IMG/VR virus record: IMGVR_UViG_2861058914_000003
Reading direction: 5' to 3' (one strand)
DNA from: a virus
Taxonomy: Duplodnaviria; Heunggongvirae; Uroviricota; Caudoviricetes
DNA: 43,448 nucleotides
The position numbers are program-made. Positions 18,001-21,000 of the stretch are shown here, piece by piece; position 1 is the first letter of the stretch, and the number at the start of each line of letters is the position of its first letter.

Positions 18001-21000
18001 GACTTCTCCCCCAAAAGCCAGGACGCAGTGGCATTACAGCAGATTAAAGAGCGTGGTGCTTTACCGATGATTGATCGCGGTGATATCCGTCAGGCAATCG
18101 ACCGTTGCAGCAATATCTGGGCTTCACTGCCGGGCGCTGGTTATGGTCAGTTCGAGCATAAGGCTGACAGCCTGATTGCAAAATTCAAAGAAGCTGGCGG
18201 AACGCTCAGAGAGAGTGAGGTATGAGCAGAATAACCGCGATTATCTCCGCTCTGGTTATCTGCGTCATCGTCTGCCTTTCATGGGCGGTTAATCATTACC
18301 GCGATAACGCGATTACCTACAAAGCCCAGCGCGACAAAAATGCCAGAGAACTGACGCTGGCGAACGCGGCAATTACTGACATACAGATGCGTCAGCGTGA
18401 TGTTGCTGCGCTCGATGCAAAATACACGAAGGAGTTAGCTGATGCGAAAGCTGAAAATGATGCTCTGCGTGATGATGTTGCCGCTGGTCGTCGTCGGTTG
18501 CACATCAAAGCAGTCTGTCAGTCAGTGCGTGAAGCCACCACCGCCTCCGGCGTGGATAATGCAGCCTCCCCCCGACTGGCAGACACCGCTGAACGGGATT
18601 ATTTCACCCTCAGAGAGAGGCTGATCACTATGCAAAAACAACTGGAAGGAACCCAGAAGTATATTAATGAGCAGTGCAGATAGAGCTGCCCATATCGATG
18701 GGCAACTCATGCAATTATTGTGAGCAATACACACGCGCTTCCAGCGGAGTATAAATGCCTAAAGTAATAAAACCGAGCAATCCATTTACGAATGTTTGCT
18801 GGGTTTCTGTTTTAACAACATTTTCTGCACCACCACAAATTTTTGCTGCATCGACAGTTTTCTTCTGCCCAATTCCCGAAACGAAGAAATGATGGGTGAT
18901 GGTTTCCTTTGGTGTTACTGCTGTAGGTTTGTTTCCAACAGTAAACGTCTGTTGAGCACATCCTGTAATAAGCATTGCCAGAGCGGCAGAAAACAACATT
19001 TTTTTCATCTTATTATCCTGCATTGTTAAAAACGGCAGAATCCTATGTGACAACAATTAAACGATAGTTAAATGGATTGATGAAAATTAAAACTACACAG
19101 GTGGGCTCAGACTATTGGAGGAAGTTGGGGACACTCAGAATCCTGTGGAATGAAATAAACCGGTCTATCCGTCCATTACCCTTTTAGCTGCGCTGTATCG
19201 TCGCCGTATTCCCGCATTAACCATGACCGTAGCCCGACGGGGAATTCCTTCTGCGTGAGTGTGCGGGAATAATTAAAAACGATGCACACCGGGTTTTTAC
19301 CGCGTTAATGATTCGCGGGTTTATCCCGGTGCGATGGTGGAAGAAACAGGAAGCTGTATTACAGAAAGTGCTACTACTGTATCCCGATGCGATGTATGTA
19401 ATGTGAGTCAGATAATGGCACAGGATGTGGTGATGTGGCAGTCTGGAACACAGGATATATTGTCAGAATAAGACCCGTAGGAATAAAAATGAAAAGACGC
19501 CTTTTACTACTTTTTCTGTTATCTGTCCTGGCAGTGGGATGCTCGCAGCAAAAAGCTGATGAGCCCCGGCAATTAGTGACGGTGTATCCACGATATCCGG
19601 AATATGCTGCAGCAAATTATATCAAGGGGCTGGTTGAGGTTAAGTTCGATATTGGTGCTGATGGGACTGTGACACGGATCGTTTTTCTCCGCTCAGAGCC
19701 TCATAATTTGTTTCGTGATGAAGTGGTGAAGGCCATGGCGAAATGGCGATTTGAAAAGAATCGCCCCTGTCAGGGAGTGAAGAGACAATTTATCTTTACG
19801 CCGTCACGTCCTTGATGCTTCCAGGTAGAGAGGGGCTGGAAGCAGGAGAAAAATGAAAGAGCCAGCGGTTATATTTTTGTCATGGCTGACGAGGAATGAT
19901 GGAAGAAGGCGTTGTATGCCACACAACGCCTCACTGTTCATTTCTTCTTTTTCTCTGGTGGAACCCGATGAATAAGAGTTGCACTGGTTTCCGATGAGAT
20001 GGCGATATACTCGGGCAAAGTATGCTGGCAGTTTTCCAACTGGTCAAAAATACCTGCTCTCGTCTGTTGCAATGCCTGCAGCATGCGGCGGCAATGCGCC
20101 TTGCTTTTACTAACCATCTTTCCTTCCTCTATCAGTCGCTGCGTGAACTCATCATGGAATACCAGGTAAATGCGGATGTTATCGGTTTTGGCTACGCAGC
20201 ATAGTACAAAACGGACAGGTGCATCCCGGGACGGGGGAGGCGTCACATGTCCCTGTGATGGTTGTTCCGGGTAATGTACTGTGTGGGGCATAAAAATGTC
20301 CGATAATTTTACTTTCTACCGCAGTTAGTTGATTCGTTGGTCCTGGTAGCACATTGGGCGAGGATTTAAATGCCAGGCAACTGAAGGATGATGTCGCAAG
20401 GGAGATAGCGAGAATATTTCTGATTTTCATTTGATGATGCCTCTGTGTGAAATGACGGTAAACGACGCACTTGTGCCGGCACATAATAGCAAGCACCATA
20501 ATAGATCAGATTCGATTCTTGCTGTAAGTGATAATTATTCTCGTTTTCGGGTCCTTTCCGTCGATCCAACAGGTTACGGGGCGGCGACCTCGCGGGTTTT
20601 CGCTATTTATGAAAATTTTCCGGTTTAAGGCGTTTCCGTTCTTCTTCGCCGTAACTTAATGTTTTTATTTAAAACACTCCCTGAAAAGAAAGGAAACGAC
20701 AGGTGCTGAAAACGGGCTTTTTGGCCTCTGTCGTTTCCTTTCTCTGTTTTTGTCCGTGGAATGAACAATGGAAGTCAACAAAAAGCAGCTGGCTGACATT
20801 TTCGGCGCGAGTATCCGTACTATTCAGAACTGGCAGGAGCAGGGAATGCCCGTTCTGCGAGGCGGTGGGAAGGGTAATGAGGTGCTTTATGACTCTGCCG
20901 ACGTCATAAAATGGTATGCCGAAAGGGATGCTGAAATTGAGAACGAAAAGCTGCGCCGGGAGGTTGAAGAACTGCGACAGGCCAGCGAGACAGATCTCCA

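Follow-up and report, generated by a model that had tools for sequence, protein, structure and literature searches.

Siderophores and vitamin B12 enter the cell through TonB-dependent transporters of the outer membrane, a route that is shared by many phages, colicins, microcins and siderophore-conjugated antibiotics. In the structures 2GSK and 2GRX strand beta-3 of TonB pairs with the TonB boxes. Engineered periplasmic TonB fragments reportedly inhibit FhuA- and FecA-dependent transport (so the title of Howard et al. 2001, J Bacteriol 183:5885), and the inhibitory C-terminal fragments of Koedding et al. 2004 are said to have comprised 86 residues or more. Llp of T5 and Cor of phi80, N15, HK022 and mEp167 are phage outer-membrane lipoproteins that inactivate FhuA from the periplasmic side, and according to the Llp preprint many Llp-like proteins are present in a viral structure library. 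In this work we have analyzed a lambda-like prophage of 43,448 nucleotides, the IMG/VR record IMGVR_UViG_2861058914_000003 (the window; all coordinates refer to this whole stretch of DNA), which encodes at 19489..19815 (plus strand, stop included) a predicted lipoprotein of 108 amino acids with a TonB C-terminal domain (TonB_C). The gene is cargo of a variable slot between the lysis and terminase genes, it is under purifying selection, its closest relatives are short exported TonB_C proteins and its presumed counterpart in a homologous prophage is transcribed in the lysogen.

A Shine-Dalgarno motif AGGA (19479..19482, plus strand) stands 6 nt 5' of the ATG, a ribosome binding site being annotated shortly before the gene in the phage 21 record, and the product is 100% identical to RefSeq WP_000830178.1. 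Its N-terminus, MKRRLLLLFLLSVLAVGC followed by S, matched the lipoprotein pattern in a pattern search, which predicts a signal peptide of residues 1-17 and a lipidated Cys18 (19489..19542) in the lipobox L-A-V-G-C. Ser19 at position +2, a residue other than Asp, predicts Lol-dependent sorting to the outer membrane. The lipobox Cys, the length and the core residues are invariant in an alignment of six close homologues. The linker SQQKADE (residues 19-25, 19543..19563), where the AlphaFold2 confidence score (predicted local distance difference test, pLDDT) is below 50 at residues 16-21, leads from the anchor to the TonB C-terminal domain of residues 26-104 (19564..19800), in which the first strand starts at residue 28 and the YP motif is Y36 P37. 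The original prediction had described a lipoprotein of about 108 amino acids matching TonB motif for motif and lacking the TonB N-terminal anchor and proline-rich spacer. All of this is borne out: the open reading frame (ORF) and its lipoprotein signal pattern agree with that description, each motif letter listed there is identical within a gapless 80-residue alignment, and in place of the TonB anchor there is a lipoprotein signal with only 7 residues between Cys18 and the domain.

In that alignment 32 of 80 positions (40%) are identical between residues 24-103 and residues 151-230 of E. coli TonB. The Pfam profile TonB_C (PF03544) matched with 49.2 bits against a curated cut-off of 24.6 (E = 7e-13; profile positions 2-67 of 79 covered) and TIGR01352 with 47.4 bits against 27.1 (positions 1-74 of 76), whereas the full-length NCBIfam TonB equivalog models were matched in their C-terminal quarter only, at 45-69 bits versus cut-offs of 265-448. 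A search of the PDB returned TonB C-terminal-domain chains at E = 1e-14. The AlphaFold2 model, built on an alignment of 29 sequences, has a pLDDT of 86 overall and of at least 95 across the domain. Foldseek placed 1u07, 2gsk_B and 2grx_C at the top of its PDB matches, with root-mean-square deviations of 0.9-1.5 Å and target TM-scores of 0.90-0.92, and all significant PDB structure matches of the model were TonB C-terminal domains. The profile search and the structure prediction, both of which the original prediction had called for, thus returned the TonB_C domain and fold, so that the refuting outcome named there, a prediction lacking this fold, did not occur. The model lies 1.0 Å from BtuB-bound TonB (2gsk_B) and 0.9 Å from FhuA-bound TonB (2grx_C), its edge strand 94-103 is the modelled counterpart of TonB beta-3, and the segment equivalent to TonB 153-163 is retained. 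Profile matches and predicted fold, in an agreement well past chance, assign the protein to the TonB_C domain family, and its signal pattern would anchor it as a lipoprotein.

The sequence is not new and has long been annotated. A stretch of 601 bases that includes the gene recurs with 100% identity in phage 21 (gene CPT_21_73, "TonB C-terminal domain protein"), in ev017 and in three PhiR phages; in Perceval the DNA identity is 99.8% and the protein is identical. The RefSeq name is "TonB family protein", and older labels in ev017 and Perceval read "partial tonB-like membrane protein" and "TonB fragment". The region has been found in 1224 of 5426 complete E. coli genomes (23%), nearly always at 99% identity or more, with 1202 E. 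coli records at this level; Nissle 1917 carries the gene directly after iss. Among 50,697 phage records 15 encode the TonB_C protein. Other lambdoid prophages and Stx1a phages carry a second allele with 67-72% protein identity, and truncated copies are present in some genomes. Between the two alleles the ratio of nonsynonymous to synonymous change (dN/dS) is 0.10-0.12 with the proportion of synonymous differences (pS) at 0.65-0.71, close to saturation, and within the second allele dN/dS is 0.18; the gene is under purifying selection. New in this work are the selection, the cargo slot, the closest relatives and the lysogen expression in a homologous prophage. Full-text literature searches found no functional study of the TonB_C lipoprotein, so that a lysogen-expressed TonB head with a predicted outer-membrane anchor on a phage appears to be uncharacterized in the literature searched. 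A paper on prophage orf6/orf10 and iron acquisition was set aside, its subjects being a tail fibre and an unrelated hypothetical protein.

The position of the gene was compared in phage 21-type prophages, the JLK-2012/Stx1a type, two draft contigs and a Klebsiella phage whose protein is 41% identical. It is constant: directly after the lysis genes, on the strand of the late operon and before the terminase. Upstream there is a conserved non-coding block, and from a fixed point within it the gene always follows at a distance of 295-323 nt. This block (19189..19350, plus strand), which separates bor from the TonB_C gene, bounds the slot on the left throughout, and the terminase genes (Nu1-like and A-like, 20768..23213, plus strand) bound it on the right. 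Among 104 IMG/VR loci with the conserved block the TonB_C gene was present in 18, and in the remaining 86 there was other cargo or none, some leading straight to ylcI and the terminase. Since only 18 of these loci and 15 of the phage records mentioned above carry it, the TonB_C gene is a moron, i.e. a cargo gene in a variable slot, and is neither part of a bor module nor a core lysis gene. The suggestion that it is a lysogenic-conversion gene agrees with this behaviour and with the transcription in the NC-SV lysogen described below. That it lies beside bor, as had also been noted, is true here: the bor/iss homologue (18715..19008, minus strand; Pfam Lambda_Bor 1e-30; Bor-like in phage 21, Iss in Nissle) is 480 bp away in divergent orientation. 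The association is incidental, however, since bor neighbours the TonB_C gene only in the phage 21 type, none of 11 IMG/VR copies of the other allele is near bor and the Klebsiella phage copy has no bor beside it; a functional link between the two genes was rejected in view of these copies. No known defence system was matched by PADLOC.

A consensus scan found no sigma-70 promoter on the plus strand, and no Fur box was found within 3 mismatches in the entire window. A conserved island in otherwise diverged upstream DNA, TGTCAGAAT at 19461..19469 (plus strand), located 20 nt 5' of the ATG, is a possible extended -10 promoter element; the other allele has TGTTAGAAT at the aligned position. Expression of the gene has been followed in published RNA sequencing data for NC-SV, a homologous prophage of E. 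coli NC101, in which the lysogen was compared with a prophage deletion strain 10 min after infection by an unrelated virulent phage (PMC12803456 S1 Data; the data cover only the genes listed there). The fold changes track expression in the lysogen, as the deletion strain gives no reads for prophage genes. RS06965, a "TonB family protein" next to iss (RS06960), had a log2 fold change of -9.9, the fifth largest among the genes listed; the values were -9.8 for the cI-like regulator, -7.2 for Q, -6.7 for J and -6.2 for iss, and the next gene, RS06970, had a logFC of -7.5. The NC-SV holin, lysozyme, terminase, portal and capsid genes are not among the genes listed. In NC-SV, the one prophage for which this was seen, the presumed TonB_C gene is thus active in the lysogen, and the late genes on either side of it are silent as far as the genes listed show. 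We infer that RS06965 is the phage 21-type allele, because the arrangement ompC-lysis-iss-TonB is that of Nissle and the other allele was never found beside bor or iss.

An exhaustive profile-free search showed that the closest relatives are short TonB_C proteins of 107-135 amino acids, which align over their full length with 38-46% identity and up to 99 bits; E. coli TonB reached only 57 bits in the PDB search. Fourteen loci of such relatives, from Raoultella, Klebsiella, Serratia, Erwinia, Pantoea and Pseudescherichia, had lambdoid lysis, bor or terminase genes nearby in no case. The Klebsiella relatives adjoin lacZ and lacI, the Raoultella ones have a neighbouring ORF pair that matches in size and order, the Serratia ones adjoin nhaB and a lytic transglycosylase, and a glycine-zipper lipoprotein gene and ordinary housekeeping genes are also found near chromosomal relatives. 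Among 44 short relatives retrieved, 25 had a lipobox, in each case followed at position +2 by S, T or A and never by D, and others had an ordinary signal peptide; some relatives are accordingly lipoproteins by pattern and others probably soluble in the periplasm. The sequence comparisons place the phage gene in a separate family of short, anchorless, exported TonB_C proteins and not among fragments of the host tonB. A recent fragment of host tonB is ruled out by the closeness to this family (99 versus 57 bits) together with the purifying selection.

The idea that such a protein could act as a periplasmic decoy for TonB boxes is plausible from its geometry and from the precedent of the engineered fragments, and competition with TonB for TonB boxes is the mode of action that we tentatively favour by analogy. 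Also in its favour are the completeness of the domain, the match of the model to receptor-bound TonB, the lipobox with a residue other than Asp at +2 in each lipobox-bearing relative, the purifying selection, the expression in the NC-SV lysogen and the existence of Llp and Cor as functional analogues. The 7-residue tether would hold a complete TonB C-terminal domain just beneath the outer-membrane transporters, where it would offer the edge beta-strand of TonB to TonB boxes. Having no connection to ExbB/ExbD, it would deliver no energy, and the TonB boxes that it occupied, of transporters or of incoming colicins, would be unproductive. The expected outcome would be partial protection of the lysogen from TonB-dependent phages, colicins and microcins, at the price of some dampening of siderophore and vitamin B12 uptake. 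Phage 21 natively enters through LamB, a receptor independent of TonB, and the C-terminal 199 amino acids of the J protein in the window (gene at 36052-39534) are 99.5% identical to those of phage 21 J. With LamB as the receptor of this phage type, exclusion, if there is any, would be directed at other phages or at bacteriocins; self-exclusion through the carrier's own receptor is ruled out by the match of J to that of the LamB-using phage. Going further, the 91-residue mature protein might mimic the TonB head in nature, tethered to the outer membrane of the lysogen and covering TonB boxes as they become exposed; a temperate phage would thereby confer broad, receptor-independent protection from TonB-dependent phages, group B colicins and microcins, a kind of exclusion distinct from that of Llp and Cor; this stronger form we consider rather doubtful.

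Several observations weigh against competition, particularly in a strong form. Host-associated E. coli rely on TonB-dependent siderophore uptake. The gene is nevertheless present in nearly a quarter of the complete E. coli genomes, at the count given above, including Nissle 1917, and is expressed in the adherent-invasive strain NC101; being common and well expressed, it can hardly be a strong general TonB blocker. Residues implicated in the TonB-box contacts of TonB are replaced (Q160 by Y or L, R158 by T or K, R166 by Y). In the NC-SV lysogen fiu, entD, fhuF, iroC, exbB and fhuA were each 0.2-0.75 log2 higher and none significantly so, in a comparison that is confounded by the removal of sitABCD along with the prophage and covers only the genes listed. 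This lysogen thus gives no clear sign of strong iron starvation in lysogeny broth (LB) among the genes listed, and such small shifts of the Fur regulon would argue against a strong general TonB block. The closest relatives of the protein are chromosomal and lie in non-phage contexts, which suggests a cellular role and not necessarily antagonism. Finally, the small RNA svsR alone reproduced the phage-protective phenotype of NC-SV (PMC12803456). The challenge phage in that protection was RSB03, and the TonB_C gene is expressed in NC-SV as strongly as the cI-like repressor.

The same domain could serve as a more selective trap, binding mainly the TonB boxes of invaders (group B colicins, microcin-receptor complexes, phage proteins) and the host's own only little, which would give immunity-like protection at little cost to iron uptake. 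Fold and topology are those expected of a competitor, the non-significant response of the Fur regulon and the high prevalence fit such a trap, and the segment around TonB Q160 differs between the phage alleles (TVY versus KAL), as specificity tuning might produce. TonB-box recognition as established from 2GSK and 2GRX is, on the other hand, mostly backbone beta-pairing, from which strong discrimination is not expected, and we hold this variant to be unlikely. A similarly low probability is given to a role in the envelope that has nothing to do with TonB boxes. The ligand of the domain would then be peptidoglycan or some other component of the periplasm, and the protein would make the outer membrane stiffer or alter it otherwise, contributing to resistance to serum or stress in the manner of Bor/Iss. 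The TonB C-terminal domain reportedly binds peptidoglycan (Kaserer et al. 2008), bor/iss adjoins the gene in phage 21-type prophages, the gene is expressed in the NC-SV lysogen, and chromosomal relatives lie near a glycine-zipper lipoprotein and housekeeping genes; set against these are the other allele and the Klebsiella phage copy, which have no bor beside them, the sequence itself, in which no peptidoglycan-binding motif is evident, and the residues conserved across the family, which are those of the TonB core fold.

A part in lysis has been implied by annotation, as the PHROG family phrog_1267, labelled "Rz-like spanin" (category lysis), matches the protein over its full length at 5e-43, and the gene always follows the lysis cassette directly on the late-operon strand, even in the Klebsiella phage at 41% identity. 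The protein would then be an outer-membrane partner of holin, endolysin and spanins at the close of the lytic cycle and might, for instance, form a bridge to the TonB of the host. The window, however, already has a complete Rz/Rz1 pair (18222-18683, with Rz1 nested in Rz at 18442-18624), 97-100% identical to that of phage 21; the NC-SV gene is transcribed in a lysogen in which the lysis genes are not; and unrelated cargo or none occupies the slot in 86 of the 104 related loci. We therefore regard an accessory role in lysis as very improbable. Spanin identity as such is ruled out by the architecture, a folded alpha/beta TonB_C domain in place of a short proline-rich o-spanin and no hydrophobic or transmembrane segment at the C-terminus, and by the separate Rz/Rz1. 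The phrog_1267 label is probably an annotation error, its members being TonB_C lipoproteins, and will spread through PHROG-based annotation. Least credible of all is a functionless remnant of a captured tonB. The labels in ev017 and Perceval and the truncated copies in some genomes would suit a remnant, which is already contradicted by the selection analysis (dN/dS 0.10-0.18 with saturated synonymous sites); moreover, the lipobox and the 108-residue length are conserved, identity is at least 99% in the 1202 E. coli records, the NC-SV copy is strongly transcribed and the protein is nearer to the short TonB_C family than to TonB.

Should the gene, carried by at least 23% of complete E. coli genomes, tune the TonB route, it would affect the host range of phages used in therapy, the competition by colicins and microcins in the gut and the uptake of Trojan-horse antibiotics, and the probiotic Nissle 1917 is among its carriers. 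If competition is the true mode of action, the protein would also offer a natural minimal TonB antagonist for mechanistic work, and under the TonB-mimic proposal the chromosomes of Klebsiella, Serratia and Erwinia would, with their anchorless TonB_C proteins, encode an intrinsic brake on transport through the TonB system.

The non-coding block at the left border of the slot was found in 432 of the 50,697 phage records, including lambda, 434 and Stx phages, most of them without the TonB_C gene, and its conservation exceeds that of the synonymous sites of TonB_C. A protein-coding reading was rejected, as there is no excess of change at third positions and every frame is interrupted by stop codons, in 24 to 67 of the 67 variants. 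Nested helices of the block are 97.5% paired on 16 variants, with U-G/U-A/C-G exchanges that are workable on the plus strand only, and the covariation score of 0.140 compares with 0.107 ± 0.006 in shuffled alignments, none of 500 shuffles reaching it and all slid controls being lower. The block may be an undescribed structured RNA of the late transcript. Rfam gave no family for the block or the upstream DNA, only spurious microRNA matches to the inverted repeat that precedes the terminase gene. In the record of HK629 a promoter on the minus strand is annotated within the first 45 nt of the block.

The remainder of the window has the layout of a lambda-like prophage. The integrase (1-1143) and a CI-like repressor (5655-6410) are encoded on the minus strand. 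An inverse autotransporter of 1421 amino acids of the intimin/invasin type with several Big_1 and Invasin_D3 repeats (9252-13517, plus strand) and a BD-FAE/alpha-beta hydrolase esterase (13554-14597, minus strand) lie between the replication genes and Q and are likely further cargo genes. They are followed by the Q antiterminator (16446-17135) and the lysis cassette of holin, endolysin, Rz and Rz1 (17445..18683, plus strand). The cargo region that holds the TonB_C gene also contains a hypothetical gene of 60 amino acids (20022..20204, plus strand; phrog_3744, 3e-46), annotated in phage 21 and Nissle, of which NC-SV RS06970 is the probable counterpart. It is overlapped by an ORF on the opposite strand (19938-20291, minus strand) with a PHROG of its own, phrog_4843, each match being at about 3e-46; likely at most one of the two is real, and phage 21 and RefSeq annotate the plus-strand ORF. 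The terminus of the phage 21 record maps to 20578, and the cos end lies near this position. A long near-perfect inverted repeat (20682-20749) stands between it and the start of the Nu1-like terminase gene at 20768 and probably holds the cosB terminase-binding elements. Downstream of the tail tip gene J lie the side tail fibre gene (39587-41614) and, just past it, an IS3-family element with an rve-domain transposase and a 112-residue upstream ORF (41905-43088, minus strand).

Compared with the described systems the protein is closest in fold to the C-terminal domain of E. coli TonB (about 150-239; 1U07, 1XX3, 2GSK chain B, 2GRX chain C), with which it agrees within 0.9-1.5 Å and of which it keeps the YP motif, G186, F180, F202, W213 and F230, with Y215 conservatively replaced by F. 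It differs from TonB in lacking the N-terminal transmembrane anchor and the proline-rich spacer and hence the coupling to ExbB/ExbD, in being lipid-attached, by prediction, to the opposite membrane and in ending at the equivalent of TonB residue 235; with the domain present and both anchor and spacer missing, it is not a TonB energy transducer. Llp and Cor are likewise small phage-encoded outer-membrane lipoproteins whose target, a TonB-dependent transporter, is reached from the periplasm, but this target is specifically FhuA and the protection is against phages with the same receptor as the carrier, whereas the present phage type uses LamB. Their fold is unrelated, the model having no match in the viral structure library and only TonB matches in the PDB, and the protein is therefore not of the Llp/Cor kind. 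Lambda Bor/Iss is another cargo gene for an outer-membrane lipoprotein, also expressed from NC-SV; it is unrelated in sequence and fold, is encoded on the other strand and does not accompany the second TonB_C allele. The engineered periplasmic TonB fragments, which are dominant-negative inhibitors, share with the phage protein an anchorless TonB C-terminal region in the periplasm, and the phage protein spans what we take to be the same region as the shortest inhibitory ones; it differs from them in being natural, in its predicted lipid anchor in the outer membrane and in its 40% identity to TonB. The chromosomal short TonB_C proteins of Klebsiella, Raoultella, Serratia, Erwinia, Pantoea and Rahnella, natural counterparts of the engineered fragments, have the same architecture of signal peptide/lipobox and TonB_C domain, are 36-49% identical to the phage protein and share with it the motif SEP.HLFD..V..A..KWRFEK.KP..G; they differ in their conserved non-phage contexts and in the ordinary signal peptide of some, which would make these soluble in the periplasm.

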